A stretch of 64,000 nucleotides of DNA from a phage: the sequence record PZ495249.1. One strand, written 5' to 3'. The notes under the pieces are model-generated. The model saw nothing but the letters and a program-made list of their open reading frames with translations, made no database searches and was not told where the DNA came from. Below, piece by piece: positions 2,553 to 47,886 of the stretch (position 1 is its first letter; every line of letters starts with the position of its first letter). The position numbers and the translations under genes were made by a program.

Positions 2553-2582
2553 ATTATGCGCCCCTCCTGGGCGCTTGTCAAT
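2553..2582 (-). promoter_or_regulatory. sigma70-like promoter TTGACA-N18-CATAAT
   Basis: upstream of ORF 2393..2506; approximate coordinates. Confidence 0.45.
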
Positions 2583-2585
2583 CCC

Positions 2586-3134
2586 TTATTTAAAATAATT
2601 TCGTAGGGCTTGCGCTGCCTCTTCCGGTGTCGGATGATACGGCGTGATCGCGTCCTCTTCCAGGACTACCGGATCAAGCTCCGGCTCTTCCTCCGGCGCG
2701 TTCTCTTCCTCCAGGAGTACAGATCCCGCCAGCTTATCGATCTTGCGCTGCGCCTTGTCTGCTTTCACGTCCAGGACTCGCAAGGCGCTACGATAAAGGC
2801 TCTCAGGCATCTTTCCCGCCTCATATGCTTTTGTAAGCGCTGCCACCTTGCCAGGGTACTCTAACAGCGTTTTAAACGCCGGATCTACCATCAGCAGGGG
2901 ATCGCCTTTCGCGTCATCTGCCGGATCTGCCGCCCCTGCAATGTCTGCCTGTCCATTTGGTAGCCAGCCTGGAACCGTGGCGCGGATCGCCGTGTTCCCG
3001 TTGTTACGCGCTACGCGCTGCCCCACTTGCTCGCCACTGTAGCCGCTTGCGTCATCCAGGAGATCAGGCGGGATCACCCTCCAATCATCCTCGTCATGCT
3101 TAACCCACGATTGAATAACATGCTCACGCCCCAT
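2586..3134 (-). CDS. hypothetical early protein (182 aa)
   Basis: track ORF; GAGGGG upstream of ATG. Confidence 0.6.
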   Translation of the reverse strand: MGREHVIQSWVKHDEDDWRVIPPDLLDDASGYSGEQVGQRVARNNGNTAIRATVPGWLPNGQADIAGAADPADDAKGDPLLMVDPAFKTLLEYPGKVAALTKAYEAGKMPESLYRSALRVLDVKADKAQRKIDKLAGSVLLEEENAPEEEPELDPVVLEEDAITPYHPTPEEAAQALRNYFK

Positions 3135-21192: not shown

Positions 21193-23006
21193 TGGCTAAA
21201 AGCGAACTAAGTTTTACACCGACTGACGAACAATTTGCAATTGAAGGTGCGTTCAAAGAGAACCGATTCACCACCATTCAAGCTAAATCTGGATCTGGTA
21301 AAACTTCCACATTGTATATGCTGGCAAATGGTACGGATGATAAGATCCTGTATCTGGCATTTAACAAAAGCATGGCAGAAGAAGCCCGTCGCAAGATGCC
21401 GGATAATGTAGAATGCAGAACATTGCATTCCATATGCTACCAGCAACTGGATCAGTCTCTGCGTCACAAGCTGACACGTCCAGAAGGTGCATACGTTAAC
21501 GTGGCAGGAACGGGTAACGAGATTGCCAAGAAGTTCAAAATCAATAACTTGATTGATAAAAATGGGAAAACTCTGCTCACTCGTGCAATGATTGGTTTGA
21601 TGATCAAGCAAACTGTGGGTAAGTTTGAATTCTCCGACGATGCTCACCTGGGGCGTAAACACTTCCCTACTGTGCATCTGGCAGATATTAAACGCAAAAA
21701 CATCAATGAAAACAAACTGATTTCAGAGGTGGTTACGTATGCTAAACAGCTTTGGCGTGAACGTATTGATCCTAAGTCAGAAACAATCATGACTCACGAC
21801 ACCTATGTGAAACTGTTTGAATTGTCGGGTAAAGACTTGGGATACGATATCATCTTTGGTGATGAGTTCCAGGACGTTAACCCTGCGTTCCTGTCCATCC
21901 TGCGTAATGCCAAGGCAGCTAAACGCATTGTGGTGGTAGGGGATGAATTCCAGAGTATCTATCAGTTCCGTGGTAGTCAGAACATGATGAAAGAAACCTC
22001 CACCTACGGTGTAGAACTTCCTCTGACAGCATGTTTTCGATTCGGTCCGAAAGTGGCAACTATCGCCAACATGATCCTGGAAGATAAAGAACCGCTGGCT
22101 CACCCGCTGGTAGGTAAAGGTTATGATACAACGGTAGGCAGTTATGTCTCTGATATGGTGGATTACACCAAGCCGTATACAATCATCTTCCGTAAAAACC
22201 TGACACTGCTGATGGAAGCAATGGATCGTATCGCTGATGGTGAGGAGATTATCATCAACGTTGACACCAAAGACTTTATCTCAATGGTGGATAGCGTGAA
22301 CGCTCTGCGTCGTGGTGATATTGAGAAGGTGAAACACGAAACAGTGTTACCATATGCAAACTGGGATGAGTTTGTAGAGTGCGCTGAGAGCGATCCTGAC
22401 GCGAAACGACTGCTTAACGTAGTTGTGAGTGGGAAAGCGAATACAATCGCTCACACCCTGCGTACACATCGAAATTCACCTACTGCGAAGGTGACGCTCA
22501 CTACGGCTCACAAGTCAAAAGGTCTGGAGTGGGATCAGGTAGTTGTTGCTAACGACTTCCCTTCCAACTATGATAAGAAAACAGGGGAATGGGTGGGTTT
22601 GGAAGAAGCAGAGCGTAACCTGTTGTACGTAGCCCACACTCGTTGTATCAAATGCTTACAGTGGAACAGCACTGTTCAAGAGATTATTGATATCAGGGGT
22701 GTAGCGCAGGAGAAAACTGCGCCCCCAAAGGAGAAGCCGCTTAAAGGCGGCATCCCCATCGAAAATGTTCGCTTAGGCGTGTTTGGTGCTGGCTGTACGA
22801 CAGCCAGTGATATCAAGTGCTTCGTAGCAGATAGCTTCGATGGTAACGATAACCACCTCCAGGCTTACGAAAGTTGGCTTGAAGATGGTGACGGTGAATT
22901 CCTGGGAGAGATTGATTTGATGCCGGACTTGTCCCGTAGCAATGACCTCTTAGGACGCATCGAAAGAAAGATAGCAATGGAAAACTATGACGGAGATACC
23001 TGTTAA
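21192..23006 (+). CDS. UvrD/PcrA-like superfamily 1 DNA helicase
   Basis: Walker A AKSGSGKT; Walker B FGDEFQD; helicase C-terminal motifs; 604 aa. Confidence 0.8.
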   Translation: MAKSELSFTPTDEQFAIEGAFKENRFTTIQAKSGSGKTSTLYMLANGTDDKILYLAFNKSMAEEARRKMPDNVECRTLHSICYQQLDQSLRHKLTRPEGAYVNVAGTGNEIAKKFKINNLIDKNGKTLLTRAMIGLMIKQTVGKFEFSDDAHLGRKHFPTVHLADIKRKNINENKLISEVVTYAKQLWRERIDPKSETIMTHDTYVKLFELSGKDLGYDIIFGDEFQDVNPAFLSILRNAKAAKRIVVVGDEFQSIYQFRGSQNMMKETSTYGVELPLTACFRFGPKVATIANMILEDKEPLAHPLVGKGYDTTVGSYVSDMVDYTKPYTIIFRKNLTLLMEAMDRIADGEEIIINVDTKDFISMVDSVNALRRGDIEKVKHETVLPYANWDEFVECAESDPDAKRLLNVVVSGKANTIAHTLRTHRNSPTAKVTLTTAHKSKGLEWDQVVVANDFPSNYDKKTGEWVGLEEAERNLLYVAHTRCIKCLQWNSTVQEIIDIRGVAQEKTAPPKEKPLKGGIPIENVRLGVFGAGCTTASDIKCFVADSFDGNDNHLQAYESWLEDGDGEFLGEIDLMPDLSRSNDLLGRIERKIAMENYDGDTC

Positions 23007-23194
23007 TGGACGGAAGTTCAATTCTGCACAAAGTATTAACCTGGCTTGAACAAGAAGTAGAAAAAGGCTTGCATGATCCCTCAGTGGATGCTAAAGTAGA
23101 GTCACTTTTGAAACTTGGCTGGACAAAGACCAAAGAACAACTCATCGAACTCGTTGAGAAGTGGGATGGCACTGAGGACAGTTTGAAGAAATAA
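23006..23194 (+). CDS. hypothetical protein (62 aa)
   Basis: track ORF; terminator immediately downstream. Confidence 0.5.
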   Translation: MDGSSILHKVLTWLEQEVEKGLHDPSVDAKVESLLKLGWTKTKEQLIELVEKWDGTEDSLKK

Positions 23195-23197
23195 TAC

Positions 23198-23219
23198 ATG
23201 CCCCTTCGGGGGCATTTTA
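23198..23219 (+). terminator. rho-independent terminator
   Basis: ATGCCCC-TTCG-GGGGCAT stem plus TTTT. Confidence 0.55.
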
Positions 23220-23232
23220 CAGGAGATAACTT

Positions 23233-23445
23233 ATGTGTGAGAATGACACTATTGCTTTTGGAATGAATGCAGCAGAAATCGTGTTGACAATTTTTGCATT
23301 TGGTTCTATCATTGCCTTAGCTGTTGTGATGATTGCCTATCTTAACGGACATATTTTTGCCGATGCTGAAACTAAAGCAACCAGAGGTACTCTCACAAGA
23401 GAACAGATCTCAGAACTGCATAGCCACATGATACGCAAAGAATAA
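23233..23445 (+). CDS. small membrane protein (70 aa)
   Basis: track ORF; AGGAGA RBS; one hydrophobic helix. Confidence 0.5.
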   Translation: MCENDTIAFGMNAAEIVLTIFAFGSIIALAVVMIAYLNGHIFADAETKATRGTLTREQISELHSHMIRKE

Positions 23446-23460
23446 TTAAAGGAGAAAAGA

Positions 23461-23895
23461 ATGAGCATTGTAACTCAAATGAAAGCAGATCGTATTCTGG
23501 CACGTACCACAGATAAAGGTGCGTTCGCCCTGTTAACCAATATCATCGGTGAGTTTGATCTCGCTCGTACTCAGAAAGCGAATCTGGGTAAATCCGAAGA
23601 CGATATCATGATCAATATCGTAAAAGTCGGGATTGCTCACACCAAAGAAGAGATTGCTTCTCTGAAAGCTGTATCTGCTTCCCAGGCACGTATCGAACGT
23701 GCAGAGCGCGATGTTATCGTACTGGAGCGCTATCTGCCGGAAATGCTGTCTGAGGAAGACCTGCGTTTCATTGCAGAAGAATTTGCTCTATCTGGTAAGA
23801 AAATGCCCGATATGATGAAACACCTGCGTACTGATTTCCCTAACCAGTACGATGGTAAACTGGCTTCCACTATCGCTAAGGAGATCTTGGGATGA
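23461..23895 (+). CDS. GatB/YqeY-domain protein
   Basis: track ORF; AAAGGAGAAAAG RBS; YqeY-like helical pattern (..LERYLPEMLSEEDL..). Confidence 0.65.
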   Translation: MSIVTQMKADRILARTTDKGAFALLTNIIGEFDLARTQKANLGKSEDDIMINIVKVGIAHTKEEIASLKAVSASQARIERAERDVIVLERYLPEMLSEEDLRFIAEEFALSGKKMPDMMKHLRTDFPNQYDGKLASTIAKEILG

Positions 23896-37846: not shown

Positions 37847-38410
37847 ATGATCTTCCACATTACTCCCTATCTTTCTGGTGATATCGGCAAAGGCATCAAC
37901 GATACCATCCGTGAACTGCCGGAAGATAGTTGGATTTGCTTGAGGGATATCGACACGATGTTCCTACTACCAGAACAACCGATGTGGCTTGAAACCCTCG
38001 TCCGTTCTAACCCAGAGTATGATGTTATTGGTGCATCATGCAACCGCTTGGGATCTACTTACCAATTGTTCGGTAACGAAATAAGTGACGATTCAGACAT
38101 ACGCAATCACATAGAAATTGCGAAAGCAGCCCGAACAGCCTGGGGCAATAGCATTGAAGATGTTCCTCTGGGAGTACCACTTGCAGGATTCTTCTTATTA
38201 TTCAGGAAGAGTTTGTGGCAAGAAATTCCATTCGAAGAAAGATCTATTCAATTCGATTTAATCTTCTCTAATACTCTACACGCAGCAGGAAAGCGATTAG
38301 GAATCATGCGAGGAATGTATCTGTTCCATACTTATCGTCTTGGAGCAATCGATCCACGTAGAGCCATTTCGCATCTCATTCACTGCCAGGATATGGAGAA
38401 GGTAATATGA
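37847..38410 (+). CDS. hypothetical protein (187 aa), possible sugar-nucleotide transferase
   Basis: track ORF; CAGGAGGGAGAA RBS; heads a three-gene block with two glycosyltransferase-like paralogs. Confidence 0.55.
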   Translation: MIFHITPYLSGDIGKGINDTIRELPEDSWICLRDIDTMFLLPEQPMWLETLVRSNPEYDVIGASCNRLGSTYQLFGNEISDDSDIRNHIEIAKAARTAWGNSIEDVPLGVPLAGFFLLFRKSLWQEIPFEERSIQFDLIFSNTLHAAGKRLGIMRGMYLFHTYRLGAIDPRRAISHLIHCQDMEKVI

Positions 38411-38436
38411 TTGATAATTTAAGGAGGATGTTAAAC

Positions 38437-39405
38437 ATGCTTGTTCATAAGCCCCGCTTATATTGTGATAACAAGTTAGGGAGTGGGTGCGACTATCACC
38501 GAGTGGTGATGCCTTTTGCTGATAATAAATTCAAACCAAAAGAGAATGTATTGGTGTTCAACCGTATTTATTCTCGTGGTGCAGAAGAGGTTCGCCGTCT
38601 GAAAGAGCGTGGTGTTAAAGTGGTAGTAGATTTAGATGACTTCTATGAACTTAACCCTGAGCATTACCTGGCAAGCGTGTTCACAAGTCACACACAGAAC
38701 ATCATTGACATGGTGAAATTAGCAGATATTGTTATCGTCACCACTGAATATCTGGCTTACAAGGTAAGGCCACTGAATAGAAATGTGGTGGTTATCCGTA
38801 ACGCACTGCCTTTCGACACTGGTCAGTTTACCCTGAGTGAAGATAAAGAGTCAGACACTCCGCTGATATGGGCGGGTGGTGCAAGTCACTATCCTGATCT
38901 ATCTCTTGTCTCGAACAGTTTTGATGATGATTTGTTAACAATTGCCGGATATGAAGAGCACAAGTCTGCTCCTGCTGGTAGTCATCAGCAATTGACAACT
39001 GCCGAGTGGAGAAAAGTCAGACGTAAGCTACCAAATGCACAATACAAACCAGCAGTACATCATTTAGGCGAGTATATGTCGGTGTACGATGGTCATGCCG
39101 TAGCTATTGCTCCCTTGGTTGATAACGACTTCAATGCTTGTAAAAGCAACTTGAAGATCCTGGAGGCAGGAGCTAAGGGACTACCTATCATTTGTTCTAA
39201 GGTGTTACCATATTATAATCCGGTGGATGCTAACGTGGTGTTTTATGCTGAATCCCGCGCAGAATGGCACTACGAGGTGGTGAAACTTCTTCGTAATCCA
39301 AACTACGCAGAGGATCGTGGTTTAATGCTTGCAGAACACGTCAGAACACATTACAATCTTGATGATGCAAATGAATTGCGCCGACAAGTGATCGAAAGTT
39401 TATAA
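38437..39405 (+). CDS. putative GT-B-type glycosyltransferase, paralog 1
   Basis: track ORF 38407..39405 trimmed to Met after AAGGAGG; C-terminal KSNLKILEAGAKGLPIICS motif. Confidence 0.6.
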   Translation: MLVHKPRLYCDNKLGSGCDYHRVVMPFADNKFKPKENVLVFNRIYSRGAEEVRRLKERGVKVVVDLDDFYELNPEHYLASVFTSHTQNIIDMVKLADIVIVTTEYLAYKVRPLNRNVVVIRNALPFDTGQFTLSEDKESDTPLIWAGGASHYPDLSLVSNSFDDDLLTIAGYEEHKSAPAGSHQQLTTAEWRKVRRKLPNAQYKPAVHHLGEYMSVYDGHAVAIAPLVDNDFNACKSNLKILEAGAKGLPIICSKVLPYYNPVDANVVFYAESRAEWHYEVVKLLRNPNYAEDRGLMLAEHVRTHYNLDDANELRRQVIESL

Positions 39406-39413
39406 GGAGTTCT

Positions 39414-40358
39414 ATGCCTAACATTGTGCTTGACACACGCGACGGACATAATTATAGTGTCTGTGATTTCCATAGAATTATCCTTCCATACAAACGAGCG
39501 CTCACCATTAACCCACAACACAATATCTTCGTGTTCAATGGTGTGCCTACTCGTGGGAAGTCAGGATTCCTGGCTCTCAAACAACTTGGTTTCAAAATGG
39601 TTATGGATCTTGATGACTCTCTACATATTCCAGAAGGACATATGCTTGAGGACTTGTTTGATACCCGTATCCGTGATGACCTCAAGTGGTTTTTGGAACG
39701 GAGTGATTTGGTAACAACAACTACTCCTGCTCTCCAGAAAGAACTCTCAGAATATAATGACAACGTGCATATTGTGCCGAATGGTTTGCCTTTCGATGAA
39801 TGGCAATTCACCATAACAAAGGATCGTTATTCTAAGAGTCCACTGGTGTGGGCTGGCAGTGAAACCCATAAACATGACTTGGCAATCCTACCGCCCCTCG
39901 GTAAGATGCTAACACTCTGCGGATTCCGTAGAGACAAAGAAGAGCTAAGTAGCTTGCAATGGATATTGATACGAGAAGATATTCAACCTGATTGTATCTA
40001 TGAAGGTGTCCGACCATACGCCACTTACATGGAATCGTATGACGGTCATCAGGTGAGCATTGCTCCACTTGTGGATAATCCTTTTAATAATGCAAAAAGC
40101 AATCTCAAGATTCTTGAGGCTGGAGCCAAAGGCTTACCGCTGATTTGTTCTCCTCGTGAGAATTATTTCACCGAAGAGTTTAAGGATCTGGTTTACTTTG
40201 CCGATTCATTATCCGAATGGAAAGATCTGGTAGAATACTTAGTAGAGTCTCCAGATATTTGTGTTGAAAAGGGAATGGCCTTAGCCAAATATGTACGTGC
40301 TCAATACAGTATTGACGCATTAAACGAGACTCGTAGATTACTTATTGAGAGGTTGTAA
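39414..40358 (+). CDS. putative GT-B-type glycosyltransferase, paralog 2
   Basis: track ORF; AAGGAG RBS; same C-terminal motif (KSNLKILEAGAKGLPLICS) and overall colinearity with paralog 1. Confidence 0.6.
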   Translation: MPNIVLDTRDGHNYSVCDFHRIILPYKRALTINPQHNIFVFNGVPTRGKSGFLALKQLGFKMVMDLDDSLHIPEGHMLEDLFDTRIRDDLKWFLERSDLVTTTTPALQKELSEYNDNVHIVPNGLPFDEWQFTITKDRYSKSPLVWAGSETHKHDLAILPPLGKMLTLCGFRRDKEELSSLQWILIREDIQPDCIYEGVRPYATYMESYDGHQVSIAPLVDNPFNNAKSNLKILEAGAKGLPLICSPRENYFTEEFKDLVYFADSLSEWKDLVEYLVESPDICVEKGMALAKYVRAQYSIDALNETRRLLIERL

Positions 40359-40639: not shown

Positions 40640-42409
40640 GTGACACATGTTGTAAATAAGTACGGCTTTAATATTGATTTGAGTCGAGAAGGTCACACTG
40701 GTTGTCCACGTTGTATGAAGAATGGTAGAGATCGTTCACAGAATAACTTGATGGTATATGGGTTAGATAGTGGCGGTGAGCACAAAGGAGCACACTGCTT
40801 CTCATGCGAATTTACCATTCCGAGTCAAGAATGGTTGGATGAACACGGTGAAGAAATTGAAGAGGAGGATATCTTGGGAAGCGAGTTCAACCCACAAATT
40901 CATGATAAACTGAAAGAACAAACCGGAACAAACCCACGAGGCTATCGTGGAATCCGAGAAGATATTTCAAAACCCCTGGGTGTACGTTATGGTTATGATG
41001 CTGAAACAGGCAATGTGACAGACACATATTATCCAACCACTAAGAGCTATCAGATCGCAGGTTATAAACACCGCATTGATCCGAAAGACTTTACGCAACC
41101 CGTAGGGGAAACAGGTAAAGAATGTGACCTGTTCGGTGAGTTTAAATATCGAAACCACAGTGGTACAATCGTCATCGTAGGTGGTGAGCATGACATGCTT
41201 GCAGCTACACAGATGCTGATGGATCATAACAAAGGTGGTAAATACCCTGTGCCAGCCGTTGTCTCTGGTACATGCGGTGAGAGTTCCCTGCACAAGCAAC
41301 TGCAATCACGCTACAAGTTCCTTGATCAGTTCAAGAAAATCATTCTCTGCATGGACAATGATGATGCTGGTAGAGCAGCAGTAGAGAAGTGTGTTAAGAT
41401 TCTACCTCGCAACAAAGTGTACGTGATGGACTTAACTGAGGTTAAAGATCCTAATCAGGCACTTGAAGAAGGGAAGGTTGATCACTTCATTGACCGATTC
41501 TTTAAAGCGAAGATGTACACCCCTGCTGGTGTATACGCATCAAACGTCCTGTACGAGGCTGCATTGGAATGTTTGGAGGCTAAGGTCATAACCCTACCGC
41601 CATTCATGCGACAGGCTGCTAACATGCTTGGAGGCGGTTTGGTGGAGGAAGAGATTACTGTTATTCTGGCTAAAACCAGTATCGGTAAAACTCTCCTGGT
41701 GAATGAGATCACCAAACACATTATCATGGCGCACCCAGAGCATACTCTTGGCGTTCTTTCCTTGGAGGCAACGTACAAGAAGTATTCTCGTAACTTGCTG
41801 TCATCTTTCCTGCACATTCCTCTGCACCGTAAAACGGCAGAAGAGAAACAGGAGATCCTGAAAGCGAATGAGGAGAGAATTCGTAACTTCTACGAGCACG
41901 AAGACGGCACTCCACGTTTCTACGTGTGTGATGACCGAGGAGCTAACGTAGACGTTATCAAGGAAAAGGTTCTGGAGATGATCATCTACTTCGGAGTGAC
42001 AATCCTTGTTATCGACCCTTATTCTGACTTGCTTTCTGGTATGGATGTTTCCGCGCAGGAAGAACTCGCAACTTGGCTGAAACGTATTATGAAAGAGTAC
42101 GGTATCACTATTATCGTAATCTCTCACGTTAAGAAGTCTTCCAATAACAGCAATGAACACATTGTGGAAGATGATGCAATGGGTAGTAGCTTCCTGGCTA
42201 AAGGTGCTGGTATCACCATCGCACTGGAACGTGACAAACAAGCAGAAGATCCAATGGAACGAAACCGTACATATTGCTACATCCTCAAGAACCGTGAGTT
42301 CTCTGAGACAGGTGCAGCAGGTAGTTTCTTCTATGAAATCAAGACTGCTACCCTTCATGATTACGATCAGTACATGAACAAACTGCCTGTACCCGAAGGT
42401 AGTTATTAA
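40640..42409 (+). CDS. bifunctional DNA primase/helicase (T7 gp4-like), GTG start
   Basis: N-terminal Cys4 zinc ribbon; TOPRIM-like acidic motifs (MDNDDAG); C-terminal P-loop KTSIGKT. Confidence 0.85.
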   Translation: MTHVVNKYGFNIDLSREGHTGCPRCMKNGRDRSQNNLMVYGLDSGGEHKGAHCFSCEFTIPSQEWLDEHGEEIEEEDILGSEFNPQIHDKLKEQTGTNPRGYRGIREDISKPLGVRYGYDAETGNVTDTYYPTTKSYQIAGYKHRIDPKDFTQPVGETGKECDLFGEFKYRNHSGTIVIVGGEHDMLAATQMLMDHNKGGKYPVPAVVSGTCGESSLHKQLQSRYKFLDQFKKIILCMDNDDAGRAAVEKCVKILPRNKVYVMDLTEVKDPNQALEEGKVDHFIDRFFKAKMYTPAGVYASNVLYEAALECLEAKVITLPPFMRQAANMLGGGLVEEEITVILAKTSIGKTLLVNEITKHIIMAHPEHTLGVLSLEATYKKYSRNLLSSFLHIPLHRKTAEEKQEILKANEERIRNFYEHEDGTPRFYVCDDRGANVDVIKEKVLEMIIYFGVTILVIDPYSDLLSGMDVSAQEELATWLKRIMKEYGITIIVISHVKKSSNNSNEHIVEDDAMGSSFLAKGAGITIALERDKQAEDPMERNRTYCYILKNREFSETGAAGSFFYEIKTATLHDYDQYMNKLPVPEGSY

Positions 42410-42778: not shown

Positions 42779-45364
42779 ATGGGAGCATTTACTTTCGACA
42801 TTGAAAGTAACAACTTGCTTAATGATGAGAGTGTGGATTACCTGTCAAGTCCTTATCGACTGAAAGACAGTTTCGAGATGCACTGTATTGTATGCGAGAG
42901 TCATGACACCGGAGAGATTATTGCTTTCCACGATGGAGACAAGTATCACTTCGATGGTCGTCCTTACGTAGAGACTGACGGGAAATACACTTACAGCCTG
43001 TTAGAATACGAACATCAGGATTACACCCATTTTCCAATGAGCGCATTCCGAGACTTCGTTAAAGGCACTGGTGTATTTGCCAACAAACCTCAGTACAAGA
43101 TTACGAAAGTAGTTGGTCATAACATTATCAACTTTGACTTGTTAGCCATTAAACTCTACTTTAAAATGAATTACAGCGTGAAATACAATACTTGGGATAA
43201 TCAGGATGTAGAAATCTGTGATACCATGATCCTGAGTAAAGTGCTGAACCCTGACCGTTTCGGTGGTCATAGCCTGGCGGAATTATCCAGCAAGGCAGGT
43301 GGTGATGTTAAGCTTGACTTCCGTAAAGATATTCCGGTTGAAGATCGATTCAAAACGTTTGCAGCAGACATGCTCTATTACTGTATTTACGATAACAAAT
43401 CGAACACCGCCGTATATAAATATCTGATGGAAGAATGGGGAGACTACGATAAATGGGCGGAACCATTTATTCTTGAACAACGTATTGCTGATATTATCAC
43501 TCGTCAGGAACACCGTGGCTTCGCTTTCAATATGAAACAAGCCGAAGAGAATATAAAAGATCTTGATTCTAAGATGGAAGCGTGTAGACTTGAGGCTGAA
43601 CCTATTCTTCCTCCGAAACCTGCAACGAAAGGTTATCTGAAAGACTTCATTCCGCCTAAACTCCAGTTTAAGAAGAATGGTGATCCAACGAGTAACATTA
43701 CGAAGTTTGCAGCTAAGCATGGTGGTGAACTGGTTGAACGTGAAGATGGATGGTGGTTGATCGCCTTGGATAAGGAAATGAAACTTCCTATCTCCAGTGA
43801 AGAGCCAATCTGTGAACCTACTGTTCCGGCTACACTGAACGACACGACACACATCAAGAACTGGCTGGTAGGATTAGGCTGGAGTCCTTCTGAGTACAAA
43901 GATAAAGACATTACGTTGAAGTCTGGTACTAAGATTAAAAAGGACGAGGCGCAGATGGAGAAAGCGATTCGCGATTACGTGGATCAAACTTTAGCATCAA
44001 ACTTCTGTCAAGATCGTTGTGACCACCTTGAATGTACGCCTGAAACTCTTGAGTGGAAGCTGCGTGACCGTATTGCTAAGGCAAAAGGTAAAGGTGTGAA
44101 GGTATTGACTAACCCATCATTCACCAAGGGGCAGGAGAAAGAGATTTGTCCTAACTTGGCTGAACTGGGTGAGAAGTTCCCGTATGCTACCCAGATCGTG
44201 GAATACCTGACGTACAAACACCGTCGAAACTCTATTCTCGGTGGTGGTGCAGATTGGGAAGATGATGAAGAGGATCAGGAATACAACAAAGGTTATCTTG
44301 CAGCAGTAAGGGCAGACGGGCGTATTCCAACGCCAGCGGCAACGTGTGACGCTGCTACTTCTCGTATGAAACACCGTCTTGTTGCTAACATTCCTCGTGT
44401 AACCTCTCTATACGGTTTCCAGATGCGTAACATGTTTGGTGTAGAGGTTCCGGCATACTTCCAGATTGGTTATGACTTTGACTCACTTGAGGCGAAGATT
44501 GAATCACATTACTGCTGGAGATATGAAGCAGAGCCGCATGAATATTGTAACGCTCTTCTGTTAGAAAAGCCGCACGATGTTCACTCAATGATGGCACGAC
44601 GCATTACAGAAACTATCGGACGTAAGTTTGAACGTGCTCCGGCTAAATCTGTTAAGTATGGTATCACATACGGCGCTCAGGCTGCGAAGGTGGCTAAGAC
44701 AATCGGTAGTGATATGCACACAGGCCAGATGGTTTATGATGCATTCTGGGAAGCTGCAAAGCCTCTCGCATTACTGAAAGAACGTCTGCATGACTTCTGG
44801 GTTAAAACAGGTAAGAAATACATTCTCGGTATCGACGGACGTAAAGTGCCTACCCGTTCTGCTCACGCTATCCTGAACTCACTTTTCCAGAGTGGCGGGG
44901 TAATCTGTGCGAAACGTGCAATGGTGATTTACGACGACCTGATCGAAGAAGAAGGGCTGGCAGTTGACTTCTTTGTTGACGATTGGAAAAACAAATCCTT
45001 CGTGCAGCAAATGATCGCTTACCACGATGAAGCACAACTTGAGGTTACTCGTGACCTGGTTGAGTTCAAATGGTTCTCCAAAGAATCTCTGGGCTGGATT
45101 CAAGTTGAGGATGAGAAAGAGCAGGAACGAATCGACAAAGAATGTATGGCTAAAGTAAATGCGTGGAAAGCTGAGGAAGAAACTCGTACTGGTAAGATCT
45201 GGGCTAACGTACACGAATCTCCGAAAGGTGGTTGGTTTACTGGCTACAGTCGTGCAGGTGAACTGGCATCCATCGCAGTTAAGAAAGCAGGTGAATTCTA
45301 TGGCCTGAACGTAGAACTGACAGCAGGTTATGACTTAGGTAATTCCTGGGCGTCCTGTCACTGA
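42779..45364 (+). CDS. family A DNA polymerase with 3-prime to 5-prime exonuclease domain
   Basis: Exo motif FDIESNNL; polymerase motif B-like KSVKYGITYGAQ; HDEAQ motif C; 861 aa. Confidence 0.85.
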   Translation: MGAFTFDIESNNLLNDESVDYLSSPYRLKDSFEMHCIVCESHDTGEIIAFHDGDKYHFDGRPYVETDGKYTYSLLEYEHQDYTHFPMSAFRDFVKGTGVFANKPQYKITKVVGHNIINFDLLAIKLYFKMNYSVKYNTWDNQDVEICDTMILSKVLNPDRFGGHSLAELSSKAGGDVKLDFRKDIPVEDRFKTFAADMLYYCIYDNKSNTAVYKYLMEEWGDYDKWAEPFILEQRIADIITRQEHRGFAFNMKQAEENIKDLDSKMEACRLEAEPILPPKPATKGYLKDFIPPKLQFKKNGDPTSNITKFAAKHGGELVEREDGWWLIALDKEMKLPISSEEPICEPTVPATLNDTTHIKNWLVGLGWSPSEYKDKDITLKSGTKIKKDEAQMEKAIRDYVDQTLASNFCQDRCDHLECTPETLEWKLRDRIAKAKGKGVKVLTNPSFTKGQEKEICPNLAELGEKFPYATQIVEYLTYKHRRNSILGGGADWEDDEEDQEYNKGYLAAVRADGRIPTPAATCDAATSRMKHRLVANIPRVTSLYGFQMRNMFGVEVPAYFQIGYDFDSLEAKIESHYCWRYEAEPHEYCNALLLEKPHDVHSMMARRITETIGRKFERAPAKSVKYGITYGAQAAKVAKTIGSDMHTGQMVYDAFWEAAKPLALLKERLHDFWVKTGKKYILGIDGRKVPTRSAHAILNSLFQSGGVICAKRAMVIYDDLIEEEGLAVDFFVDDWKNKSFVQQMIAYHDEAQLEVTRDLVEFKWFSKESLGWIQVEDEKEQERIDKECMAKVNAWKAEEETRTGKIWANVHESPKGGWFTGYSRAGELASIAVKKAGEFYGLNVELTAGYDLGNSWASCH

Positions 45365-45402: not shown

Positions 45403-45633
45403 ATGAAATTAGTATTCCAAACAGACGACATTTTCATGTTCACAAAGGATATGGGAACATATACAGGTGGACAGATTATCATCCTGGGAGATAAAAACGG
45501 ATCATCATTTAATATCTTAGGTGACATTCGTAAGGATGGGGAAGAAAAACCTGTGACTGTAACAGGTTCAGAGAGTTGGTTAGAAACTTTATACCAAACT
45601 GGTGTTATCAAATTTATTGGGGAGAAAAAATGA
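45403..45633 (+). CDS. small protein (76 aa), tandem paralog A
   Basis: track ORF; GAGGAGAAAA RBS; C-terminal G.(I/V)K(F/L)(I/L)GE.K shared with next gene. Confidence 0.5.
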   Translation: MKLVFQTDDIFMFTKDMGTYTGGQIIILGDKNGSSFNILGDIRKDGEEKPVTVTGSESWLETLYQTGVIKFIGEKK

Positions 45634-45872
45634 AACTTGTAGAAACAGTAATCACTACCGTAGAATTTGAAGTAGGGGATGTAGTTATGTTCCTGGATGA
45701 AGTTGGCTTTTATAAATTGGGAGATGTAATTGTTCTCCGTAAAGATTCCGAGCCAGAGAGATTCAAAGCTGAGGGTGCAGGGTTTATTGCTGGAGAAGCT
45801 AATGTAACACAGAAATGGCTGCATGATCTTCTGAAAGAAGGTCGAGTGAAACTGTTAGGGGAGTTAAAATAA
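45630..45872 (+). CDS. small protein (80 aa), tandem paralog B
   Basis: track ORF 45576..45872 trimmed to Met after GGGGAGAAAAA. Confidence 0.5.
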   Translation: MKLVETVITTVEFEVGDVVMFLDEVGFYKLGDVIVLRKDSEPERFKAEGAGFIAGEANVTQKWLHDLLKEGRVKLLGELK

Positions 45873-46510
45873 TGGCATTATTCATGACCGTAGATAATCA
45901 AAAGCAAGCAGCATCAGAACTTCTTTCTAAATTGAAGATGGTAGATCCGTTTGCTATGATCGCAGGTGGTGCTCCTCGTGACTGGTACTTTAACACCGTT
46001 GCCAAGGACTTGGACGTATATCTCCGTCTTCCTAACCACAATACCATTGGATTGGTAACTTCCTTGGCTGCAATGGTGGGGATTAAAGATTTCTACCCTA
46101 TCGACAAGATTAAGGAATCAACCTACGCAGAATTACCTAACCTGAAATGGGTGTTTGAAGGTCGTTACAACGGTGTTCAAGTTAATCTGATGGTTATGGA
46201 GAAGGGTGTACGCGAAGAAATTATCAAAGATTTCGACGTGGCTATCTGTCGGGCATGGTTTGATGGGATCGAGTGTCATTACAATGAAGAATTTCAATTC
46301 TGTGTGAAGACTCGTGTTTGCCTGGTTCATGAGAACTACACTGGTAAAGAAGCCCACCTGCGTAAGATGGCTAAACGTTTCCCACAATTCATGTTCTATA
46401 AGAAAGTGGAGATCCCAGAAGAACCGGACGTGAGCTTTGACGCACCTCCAAGCCACGCTAAGGCTGCACCGCTTCCTCGTAAGCTGCCTGATTTCTGTGA
46501 TGAAATTTAA
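45872..46510 (+). CDS. Pol-beta-superfamily nucleotidyltransferase (CCA-adding-enzyme head-domain-like)
   Basis: IAGGAPRDWYF...DLDVYL matches the GG..RD...DxD nucleotidyltransferase signature. Confidence 0.6.
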   Translation: MALFMTVDNQKQAASELLSKLKMVDPFAMIAGGAPRDWYFNTVAKDLDVYLRLPNHNTIGLVTSLAAMVGIKDFYPIDKIKESTYAELPNLKWVFEGRYNGVQVNLMVMEKGVREEIIKDFDVAICRAWFDGIECHYNEEFQFCVKTRVCLVHENYTGKEAHLRKMAKRFPQFMFYKKVEIPEEPDVSFDAPPSHAKAAPLPRKLPDFCDEI

Positions 46511-46561
46511 TAAATAAGGGGTTGACAAGCCCCTCCATTTTATGTTAAGATGAGGACTTGA

Positions 46562-46960
46562 ATGACAGATTCACGCGCTAAAATAACAGTCGAGACTTCT
46601 TACAGTCGTGAGATGAACAGTCTCGTTCTCGTTGAGAAAGAAGCACTTCCGCAAGACAATTCGTTCTTCATACAACTCCTGAGTATCACTGGCGGTGCAG
46701 TACGTTTAAGTGTACGTATCGACGATTCTCAGTTCTCAGAACAAACTGTCACCCGTAAAGAATTTACCCTGTTGCAAGACACACTCCGAAATATCTTAGA
46801 TACTCCAGGCAAAGCCGGAATCATTAATCTTGGTGGAAACAAGATTCAACTTCTGCATTTTGAAAATGGTGAAATCGGTGTGGGTATTGGGAAAGGTAAA
46901 TATCTGTTAGAACCAACAGATGCAATTCTATTAAGAGAATTCTGTGTCAAAGTAATGTAA
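46562..46960 (+). CDS. hypothetical protein (132 aa)
   Basis: track ORF. Confidence 0.55.
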   Translation: MTDSRAKITVETSYSREMNSLVLVEKEALPQDNSFFIQLLSITGGAVRLSVRIDDSQFSEQTVTRKEFTLLQDTLRNILDTPGKAGIINLGGNKIQLLHFENGEIGVGIGKGKYLLEPTDAILLREFCVKVM

Positions 46961-46977: not shown

Positions 46978-47886
46978 ATGCCAGTAATTAATTCCGAAAT
47001 CGACCGCAAGACTAAACAAGAAGCATTCTGGGCTGAGGGTATTGTAGAATACGTTAAGCTGGATAAGTTTGCAGAGATGAAAGTCTCTTACATTAAAGTC
47101 GCTGGTCAGCCGGATAAGAAAATTGAGTCCACTCACAAAGCTTCCATTCTTCTGAAAGAGAAAGGTGCTGGTAAGGATGATCCAGGTGTTTGGATCGGTC
47201 TGGGTGATGTTAAGCTGCATCCAGAGCATGAAAATCTGCAAGTCAAGAAAGACGACCAGTGGGTGACTATCGAACGTGGTGTTGAAATTACACTGGACGT
47301 TAAGCCTAATGAATGGCAGGGTAAAACTTATTACCAATCATCCAAAGGTAAGATCTTCGTTGTATCTACCGAAGGTGTTCAAGCTGCTGCTCCGAAAGCA
47401 GGAAAAGGTGGTGATAGCACTCCAGCTAAACAACCGTTCAAGAAACGCGATACCGTAGGTATTGAAACTGGTCACGCTGTTAACGGTGCTCTTGAGCTAA
47501 TCCGTGGTGGTGTGAAAGGTGATGCCTTTGAACTCGCAGGTGTAGTACAGTCTGCCACTGTAACGCTGAAAGCAGAAGTTGCTAAGGCTCGTGGTGTGGA
47601 TATCACTGATTACGATCTGGGTGCTTCTGTCGGTCATGCTATCCTGAATGCTTGCCGTGATCACTCTCGCGATGATGTGACCATTGACGAACTGATTGAA
47701 GCTGCTCGCGATGTGCTGGCGCTATCTGATAAGGTGGCTGCTGCAATCCGTGGTGATGCTCCTGTTGCTGAATCCAAACCAGCCGCAGAGAAGCCAAAGA
47801 CAACTCGTAAGCCAAAAGAGGCGGTAAAAGCTCCTGAGCCAGAGCCAGAACCTCCAATGGACTTCGACGACGATATTCCTTTCTAA
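46978..47886 (+). CDS. ssDNA-binding-protein-like replisome protein with E. coli SSB-type C-terminal tip
   Basis: C-terminus ...PEPEPEPPMDFDDDIPF identical to the E. coli SSB tail tip; adjacent to polymerase and primase-helicase. Confidence 0.65.
   Translation: MPVINSEIDRKTKQEAFWAEGIVEYVKLDKFAEMKVSYIKVAGQPDKKIESTHKASILLKEKGAGKDDPGVWIGLGDVKLHPEHENLQVKKDDQWVTIERGVEITLDVKPNEWQGKTYYQSSKGKIFVVSTEGVQAAAPKAGKGGDSTPAKQPFKKRDTVGIETGHAVNGALELIRGGVKGDAFELAGVVQSATVTLKAEVAKARGVDITDYDLGASVGHAILNACRDHSRDDVTIDELIEAARDVLALSDKVAAAIRGDAPVAESKPAAEKPKTTRKPKEAVKAPEPEPEPPMDFDDDIPF

Follow-up and report, generated by a model that had tools for sequence, protein, structure and literature searches.

The DNA analysed here, called the window, is a 64,000-nucleotide stretch of a phage (sequence record PZ495249.1), parts of which are ~80% identical to Citrobacter phage Tr1, to phi92-like phages and to further myoviruses of the Stephanstirmvirinae. 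An open reading frame (ORF) on its + strand encodes a small nucleotidyltransferase, termed NTase below. Judging from its predicted structure, the protein is a virus-specific minimal class-II-type enzyme, i.e. one resembling the CCA-adding enzymes as well as the poly(A) polymerases (PAP), and consists of a Pol-beta head and a vestigial neck. The original prediction, made from the sequence alone, had described this ORF of 212 amino acids, and it is present exactly as claimed. The features of the gene and its product are as follows.

45872..46510 including the stop codon, + strand: NTase ORF, ATG start, 212 amino acids (ORF list, PHROGs, AlphaFold2 model and fold matches)
45857..45863, + strand: Shine-Dalgarno-like AGGGGAG, 8 nt 5' of the NTase ATG (sequence read directly)
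45890..46402, + strand: folded core, residues 7-177, a Pol-beta head with a small strand/helix remnant of the neck (AlphaFold2 secondary structure, pLDDT, conservation)
45962..46015, + strand: motif A AGGAPRDWYFNTVAKDLD, residues 31-48, with the helix-turn GG, R36/D37 and the metal-binding D46-x-D48 (conservation, alignment)
46184..46186, + strand: Asn105, aligned with the canonical third catalytic carboxylate on strand β5 (alignment to D115 of the Klebsiella phage protein Gp22, see below)
46412..46507, + strand: predicted disordered Pro-rich tail with an acidic/hydrophobic tip LPRKLPDFCDEI (AlphaFold2 pLDDT, alignment)

The ATG of the NTase overlaps the TAA stop codon of the preceding 80-amino-acid ORF as TAATG, an arrangement that suggests translational coupling of the two. 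The signature GGAPRD...DLD, from which a nucleotidyltransferase had been predicted, was borne out: a search of all six reading frames of the window for the pattern GG..RD.{6,10}D.D gave one match, and 200 codon-shuffled windows gave none. Across 175 aligned, diverse homologues G32, G33, D46 and D48 are invariant (100%), A31, A34, R36, W38 and Y85 are conserved to at least 98%, and Q10, D37 and K165 to more than 90%. Motif A aligns to GGAVRDxLLGxxxxDxD of CCA enzymes and PAP with identical spacing (GGxxRD-x8-DxD). The alpha-beta-alpha-beta-alpha-beta core of the Pol-beta superfamily with its hG[GS] helix-turn is present in the NTase, and the [DE]h[DE]h metal pair of that superfamily is found as D46-L-D48-V. 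As for the catalytic aspartates, both of those in motif A are present and invariant, but the third acidic position is taken by Asn105, with Gln or Asn in 98% of the family. E96, on the strand adjacent to this position, is acidic in 66% of the family and might substitute for the third carboxylate. The arginine of the class-II 'TFR' is lost in the family.

The AlphaFold2 model of the NTase was built on 24 homologues. Its mean predicted local distance difference test (pLDDT) score was 83.8 and its predicted template modelling (pTM) score 0.76. Residues 7-177 are ordered, with a conserved helix (H/Y162-K165-[KR]169-F170) closing the folded core, and the last ~30 residues are disordered. When the model was compared with the PDB by Foldseek, the top 39 matches were all class-II tRNA nucleotidyltransferases (CCA-, CC- or A-adding) or E. 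coli PAP I; the top matches had E-values of 2e-6 to 3e-4 over 150-208 aligned columns and a query-normalised TM score of ~0.5. The region covered in the class-II enzymes is their head with the neck, over 176-200 columns. A profile of 133 family members likewise matched CCA-adding enzymes (E 4.3e-4), the human mitochondrial CCA enzyme (3e-3) and PAP I (9e-3). Several homologues match PF01743 (PolyA_pol) below the gathering threshold (13.8-19.9 bits against 23), Gp22 with 19.2 bits. Because of the fold, the profile matches and these sub-threshold matches, the head is assigned to the CCA/PAP type; the prediction had likened it to the head domain of this group, and rightly so.

With the single NTase sequence, a Pfam search gave no PF01743 match at E up to 10, and no useful match was found in Pfam-A, NCBIfam, PADLOC or the PDB sequences. 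These single-sequence searches were uninformative, and profiles were needed. When the family profile was run against the single E. coli Cca and PAP I sequences, motif A alone was aligned. A profile-profile run against gamma-proteobacterial CCA enzymes and PAP gave 168 columns at just 31% probability. The alignment being weak, the mapping of motifs B to D relies on conservation within the family and on bridging via Gp22.

A nucleotide-signal synthase, the other option raised in the prediction, found no support, since there was no PADLOC match and the NTase shows neither the profile match nor the C-terminal helical lobe completing the active site that mark CD-NTase/cGAS-like enzymes. Readings as MNT, MenT or RelA were likewise rejected as unsupported by PADLOC and by the structural matches. 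RlaP is an RNA-ligase-associated Pol-beta nucleotidyltransferase (PMC7824862). The NTase has neither a profile match to it nor an adjoining RNA ligase, and beyond the weak PolyA_pol matches of homologues no Pfam match was obtained.

Class-II features and the CCA label

In enzymes of class II, motif A binds metal through its DxD, and this pair alone defines the catalytic core (PMC7730189). Motif B binds ribose and motif C is a spring element (PMC7730189, PMC11784652), a β-turn between motifs A and B positions the 3' end of the primer, and a flexible loop of 10-20 residues is needed for the switch from C- to A-addition (PMC7730189). Motif D, EDxxR, serves as an amino-acid template whose Asp and Arg (D165 and R168 in the human enzyme) are non-substitutable (PMC11784652). 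The enzymes also possess motif E and a C-terminal region that binds the tRNA elbow (PMC7730189, PMC11784652).

The NTase shares with them the Pol-beta head fold, motif A, the hairpin strand with the third-ligand position, a motif-B-like F-x-x-x-I-C/N, a motif-C-like strand-helix-strand and the first neck helix. Its Y85, conserved at an invariant level, sits in the loop between motifs A and B in the model. Of the class-II motifs proper, the phage family retains motif A alone. Class-II CCA/PAP enzymes are 370-465 residues long (E. coli Cca 412, PAP I 465) and the NTase, with 212, is about half that size, in keeping with the earlier remark that it is too short for a complete CCA enzyme. Unlike the class-II enzymes, it has Gln or Asn in place of the third carboxylate, scores too low for the Pfam gathering cut-off and either lacks or does not conserve RRD (motif B), the flexible loop, EDxxR, motif E and the body/tail; and the family occurs in viruses only, linked to replisome genes and not to tRNA genes. 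From strand β5 to the motif-B region there are ~6 residues (111-116, in a low-confidence part of the alignment), so that no flexible loop is present. ED..R was also absent in the hhalign register of the family against CCA enzymes and PAP.

Since the determinants of CCA specificity and of tRNA binding are missing, the label 'tRNA nucleotidyltransferase/CCA-adding enzyme' is unjustified. The tRNA-repair enzyme offered by the prediction fares no better: motif D, RRD, the flexible loop, motif E and the tRNA-binding half are all absent, and tRNA genes are unlinked. By its sequence, then, the NTase is a relative of the CCA/PAP enzymes and no bona fide CCA-adding enzyme, and a defensible annotation is 'class-II-like minimal nucleotidyltransferase, function unknown'.

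The best documented relative is Gp22 (182 residues) of Klebsiella phage fHe-Kpn01, which is toxic when expressed in E. coli and for which an HHpred likeness to CCA-adding enzymes and an h[DE]h pattern at 114 were reported (PMC7291057). Gp22 falls in phrog_1614 (E 1.3e-39) and shares with the NTase this PHROG, the size class, the head-only architecture and a place beside PolA in a gp4/PolA block. It keeps motifs A and B in a more canonical form, as GGCIRD and FDCNLN, and an Asp at the third position, where the 'AGGAPRDW' subfamily of the window has Gln or Asn. Residues I114-D115-V116 of Gp22, in 'EIDVLFSR', resemble 'IIEVATFR' of PAP I and align with N105 of the NTase. To the same group of small putative (tRNA/CCA) nucleotidyltransferases belong gp28 of Pectobacterium phage PP47 and gp24 of Q19 (Autographiviridae); 'putative CCA-nucleotidyltransferases' were noted in 37 of 46 Pectobacterium Autographiviridae, their role being left open (PMC7693777). 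A bacterial counterpart in size is PDB 2LA3 (S. pneumoniae NP_344798.1), a stand-alone 'CCA-adding enzyme head domain' of 191 residues from structural genomics, which was not detected by sequence with the family profile. Toxins of the MenT/AbiEii type are small Pol-beta-fold nucleotidyltransferases, toxic on expression, and may serve as a functional analogy for Gp22's toxicity; one of them, MenT3, extends tRNA acceptor ends by adding nucleotides (PMC11541572).

Distribution and genomic neighbourhood of the family

The NTase matches phrog_10174 (E 5.4e-28, residues 5-129) and phrog_1614 (E 1.5e-24, residues 11-201), both named 'nucleotidyltransferase'. PF26128.2 is the precomputed Pfam label on 26 of 32 homologues; no mention of PF26128 was found in the searchable literature. 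Homologues were found by tblastn in 198 phage records, with identities of 77% in Klebsiella phage FKP3, ~51% in phi92-like and ~36% in phAPEC8-like phages, ~30-35% in Aeromonas and Vibrio phages including ICP1 (ORF223), and 29% in a Pseudanabaena phage. In GenBank they are named 'hypothetical protein', 'nucleotidyltransferase' or 'putative tRNA nucleotidyl transferase/poly(A) polymerase'. With E up to 1e-3, an exhaustive hidden Markov model search gave 2,845 representatives clustered at 50% identity, of which 921 reach 1e-10, and nearly all members are 175-220 residues long. In the viral structure library BFVD the same fold was seen in 167-215-residue proteins of T7-supergroup podoviruses (neighbours include LKD16, PP2, DU_PP_II, Ninurta, Cd1, phiAS7 and VEN) and of some giant viruses. 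IMG/VR held 109 loci. Among 185,579 bacterial and archaeal species genomes, one for each species, only 11 loci were found, all on contigs of metagenome-assembled genomes, of which three, at 131-148 kb, match in size the genomes of phages with this gene. In practice the family is confined to viruses. The window NTase thereby joins a family already catalogued and annotated, functionally uncharacterised, and is no new kind of element; new for the family as a whole are the evidence that speaks against its tRNA/CCA label, the Gln/Asn third ligand, the virus restriction and the quantified linkage to replisome genes.

The prediction had placed the gene next to the replisome. This is right: a primase/helicase, PolA and an ORF with an SSB-like tip lie nearby on the same strand. 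The neighbouring features are as follows.

40640..42409, + strand: T7 gp4-like primase/helicase (Toprim and DnaB_C; Pfam PF13155, PF03796), start of the replication block
42779..45364, + strand: PolA-type DNA polymerase, 861 amino acids (phrog_17, E 1.5e-110)
45403..45633 and 45630..45872, + strand: two small ORFs of 76 and 80 amino acids between PolA and the NTase (ORF list)
46517..46551, + strand: terminator-like hairpin AGGGGTTGACAAGCCCCT with a T-run behind it, in overlap with a sigma-70-like promoter (consensus scan)
46562..46960, + strand: 132-amino-acid ORF (phrog_16560, E 1e-57; no Pfam match)
46978..47886, + strand: 302-amino-acid ORF ending ...PPMDFDDDIPF (EPEPPMDFDDDIPF), an SSB-type C-terminal tip (phrog_4477; no Pfam match)

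The order on the + strand is thus primase/helicase, a 105-amino-acid ORF, PolA, the two small ORFs, the NTase, the hairpin/promoter, the 132- and the 302-amino-acid ORF, and the same order around the NTase is found in FKP3 and in phage muut. The two small ORFs (45403..45872) gave no Pfam match, and the second matches phrog_31972 weakly. The hairpin (7 pairs) lies 7 nt past the NTase stop codon, and with its T-run it contains the -35 box of the putative strong promoter (TTGACA-18-TAAGAT, TG-extended, 10 of 12 consensus matches), which would form a combined terminator/promoter element. From this layout, the transcription unit of the NTase appears to end with this gene. The 132-amino-acid ORF stands at offset +1 from the NTase in all of the 11 close loci, and in close loci the 302-amino-acid ORF stands at +2. 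SSB PHROGs match the latter weakly, and the matches are confined to its C-terminal ~30-35 residues (from 267/272 to 302). Its end EPEPPMDFDDDIPF is essentially the C-terminal tip of E. coli SSB, and the ORF may encode an unconventional ssDNA-binding protein or replisome hub of the phage, with a mimic of the host's SSB tip.

The context of the gene was surveyed by calling and clustering the ORFs of 91 related loci, which fall into 62 groups at 90% identity, and by labelling the clusters with PHROGs. A gp4-type primase/helicase (phrog_239) is found no more than 6 kb from the NTase in 40 of the 62 dereplicated loci and PolA in 32, always on the same strand; another DNA polymerase was seen in seven. 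Taken together, a primase/helicase or a DNA polymerase is present within this distance in 45 of the 62, and in 30 of the 39 loci with full flanks. The next commonest neighbours are HNH homing endonucleases and a FEN-type exonuclease. Genes for homing endonucleases of the HNH/AP2 type stand in the replication block around the NTase in 19 of the dereplicated loci, and relatives of the window PolA are annotated as split ('part I') or as intein-containing. The arrangement recurs in a 47-kb Zobellviridae podovirus, and in the KP34-like fHe-Kpn01 gp22 directly follows PolA and overlaps the polymerase stop codon. In T7-like Pectobacterium phages the gene lies between the helicase and the DNA polymerase (PMC7693777), and an H-NS/tRNA-binding protein gene is found among the middle-region genes of the same phages (PMC7693777). 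Exceptions are ICP1 and vB_CoeS_P1, where the NTase stands among small early genes, away from the polymerase. As these phages share one type of replication module, the linkage is partly inherited. T7, for its part, keeps host-takeover genes around gene 5.

The tail of the NTase is a feature of one clade. Its pLDDT is below 50 at residues 191-198 and 208-212. Acidic tips ending in F, I, W or L (DFCDEI here; AWDDDNF, PWDEEF and DDIPW elsewhere) occur in the Stephanstirmvirinae-like clade only, in 38 of 126 long-tailed members, and distant members end in a short helix instead. The tip DFCDEI resembles the ...DFDDDIPF tip of the 302-amino-acid ORF two genes downstream. From its sequence the acidic tip is a plausible docking peptide. 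The tip is also reminiscent of the docking tails of the SSB type and of the T7 gp2.5/gp4 type.

No tRNA gene was found in the 64-kb window. Linkage of the NTase to tRNA genes was rejected on the counts given in the next section, on the existence of a tRNA-less phage that carries the NTase and on the tRNA genes of FKP3, the closest complete phage. FKP3 has 23 of them (ARAGORN; 19 annotated) at 87.7-93.9 kb of its record, and 22 encode their own CCA, so that CCA synthesis de novo is unneeded and only repair could be. The tRNA-Met gene at 93809-93883 of the record ends ...GGGTCAC followed by TAA, without CCA. FKP3 also encodes a 668-residue 'RNA ligase' (record 21753-23759) and, in a row at 101834-103920, a phosphoesterase, an Rnl1-type RNA ligase and a small ATPase, which resemble a T4-style tRNA-repair cassette. 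These RNA ligase genes are ~30 and ~50 kb away from the NTase. RNA-end repair is part of the biology of the FKP3 clade.

Function of the nucleotidyltransferase

By analogy with its relatives, the function that we tentatively prefer, at rather less than even confidence, is template-independent tailing or repair of RNA 3' ends during the replication phase of infection. The NTase would bind a (d)NTP-Mg through motif A (GG, R36 and D46xD48) and transfer the NMP, without a template, to the 3'-OH of a nucleic acid, the acceptor end being positioned by the β-turn loop that carries Y85. The likeliest acceptors would be the 3' ends of RNAs, whether tRNA, other small RNAs or messenger RNAs; these are favoured because of the ancestry of the protein, the toxicity of Gp22 and the RNA-repair inventory of related phages. 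As EDxxR, RRD, the flexible loop and the body/tail are lacking, the choice of nucleotide and the recruitment of substrate must differ from those of CCA enzymes. In the Stephanstirmvirinae-like clade, recruitment could proceed via a partner bound by the acidic C-terminal tip. Overproduction of PAP I is toxic in E. coli, and the toxicity of Gp22 would fit unregulated RNA tailing.

A number of observations weigh against this preference. At the active site, the column of N105 holds Gln in 135, Asn in 36 and Asp in 2 of the 175 members, and with Gln or Asn thus prevailing catalytic competence is not assured. The motif-B region reads IKDFDVAIC, where positions 119-122 are variable, F121, I125 and C126 alone are conserved and no RRD is present. 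The equivalent of motif D is E160-A-H-L-R164, and within the family an acidic residue stands at position 161 in 2%, and K, Q, R or D at position 164. The polypeptide stops after the first neck helix, without motif E or a tRNA-binding body/tail, and its core is not basic (family median pI 6.4). Core charge and pI were set aside as a sign of nucleic-acid binding, being uninformative: the head of E. coli Cca is itself acidic. As for the genomic evidence, any tRNA gene at a distance of up to 6 kb from the NTase was seen in only 10 of the 58 related loci, and the 47-kb Zobellviridae podovirus that carries the NTase has no tRNA gene. The replisome linkage by itself is no proof of a role in replication, and a DNA-related role fits it equally well. 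Gp22 is only ~20% identical to the window NTase (14.6 bits); as it is distant and retains the third Asp, its toxicity may not transfer to the window protein. Finally, no biochemical characterisation of any family member was found in the literature, where the searches gave just the report on the toxicity of Gp22 and some remarks from comparative genomics.

An unlikely, though serious, alternative to RNA tailing is a 3'-end transferase recruited to the replisome, where it would add untemplated (deoxy)nucleotides to DNA or primer ends. In this clade the SSB-tip-like tail would bring it there, and ends would be protected or processed, or the primers of the gp4-type primase serviced. The presence of a primase/helicase or polymerase near the NTase in 45 of the 62 loci, with PolA always on the same strand, speaks for it, and so does the sharing of this arrangement by the Zobellviridae podovirus, fHe-Kpn01 and the T7-like Pectobacterium phages (PMC7693777). 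Loss of the ribose-binding RRD (motif B role: PMC7730189) could relax the discrimination between NTP and dNTP, and the tail tips (DFCDEI, AWDDDNF, DDIPW) resemble the ...DFDDDIPF of the neighbouring SSB-like ORF. Such synteny may, however, reflect a shared ancestry of the replication module and common expression timing rather than function; in ICP1 and vB_CoeS_P1 the gene is away from the polymerase, among small early genes, and the acidic tail is confined to one clade. We know of no class-II enzyme that acts on DNA. In its most specific form, in which the 'AGGAPRDW' proteins are DNA-directed accessory transferases of the replisome with a DxD plus Gln/Asn site, relaxed sugar specificity and, here, a docked tail, the proposal is improbable; if true, it would give the CCA/PAP lineage its first DNA-directed member and a well-studied type of replisome a new component. 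It is also improbable that the acceptor is no nucleic acid at all, i.e. that a protein or small molecule is nucleotidylylated, or a nucleotide signal made or consumed, in host takeover or anti-defence. The minimal single-domain build with a neutral core and no evident nucleic-acid-binding domain would agree with this, as would the phage-restricted family, the small early-gene setting in ICP1 and vB_CoeS_P1, the toxicity of Gp22 in E. coli (PMC7291057) and the residues W38, Y85, Q10, K165 and Gln/Asn at 105, which suggest a pocket unlike that of CCA enzymes. The NTase has no PADLOC match, however, and in the survey of 91 loci it has no conserved partner gene beyond those of the replisome.

There is little likelihood that the NTase is a catalytically weakened, NTP-binding pseudo-enzyme or regulator, whose part in the replication module would be to sense nucleotides or to give structural assistance. 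Gln or Asn at the third carboxylate in 98% of members, the loss of the 'TFR' arginine and the degenerate motifs B and D point that way, but both Asp and both Gly residues are invariant over a very deep family, as is typical of active enzymes, E96 (acidic in 66%) might substitute, and the class-II catalytic core is defined by the DxD pair alone (PMC7730189). A bona fide tRNA CCA-adding or CCA-repair enzyme, as named in some GenBank records, is very improbable. The closest relatives in sequence and structure are indeed CCA-adding enzymes, annotations to this effect exist, jumbo phages are known to encode CCA enzymes of full length (PMC7824862), and FKP3 carries its 23 tRNA genes together with RNA-repair genes. 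Against this, the Asp and Arg of motif D, non-substitutable in the human enzyme (PMC11784652), are absent; there is no flexible loop for A-addition, no motif E and no C-terminal half that would bind tRNA; and 22 of the 23 FKP3 tRNA genes encode CCA, tRNA genes are unlinked to the NTase and a tRNA-less phage possesses it.

Minimal CCA/PAP-like nucleotidyltransferases are abundant: they form thousands of clusters at 50% identity and occur in myoviruses, podoviruses, ICP1 and cyanophages, and also in therapeutic-candidate phages of Klebsiella, E. coli and Pectobacterium. Throughout they tend to be kept beside replication genes. Should their activity be the tailing or repair of RNA ends, they would offer a new tool of small size and would count as factors of host takeover or counter-defence; should it be exerted at the replisome, T7-type replication would gain a component.

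Other observations on the family and its loci

Eleven longer family members carry N-terminal extensions, for which no Pfam match was found. In three of metagenomic origin (P0037, P0038 and P0048) the extension consists of one or two modules of ~90 residues (MKIRV..SP.H...VQ..LF.AGY.W...), without a Pfam match and interrelated at E 1e-9 to 5e-15. A Rosetta-stone relation between the extensions of the 11 members and the two small ORFs upstream of the NTase was considered and rejected, there being no significant similarity.

Two unannotated records under the name of Campylobacter jejuni phages, MG065639.1 (A150) and MG065650.1 (B15), contain NTase homologues that score like those of the phi92-like and phAPEC8-like phages of E. 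coli, in genomes that are equally large, which suggests a mislabelled host or contamination. Within the window, a copy of the hairpin AGGGGTTGACAAGCCCCT with three mismatches lies at 2569..2586 on the - strand, with 0.03 matches expected by chance. Directly 5' of the primase/helicase, and inside the replication block, two to four glycosyltransferase genes are present in FKP3 (locus L001, 557-1932) and muut (locus L002, 1-2734). Their counterpart in the window is probably at ~37847-40358, and they could serve in DNA or surface glycosylation.

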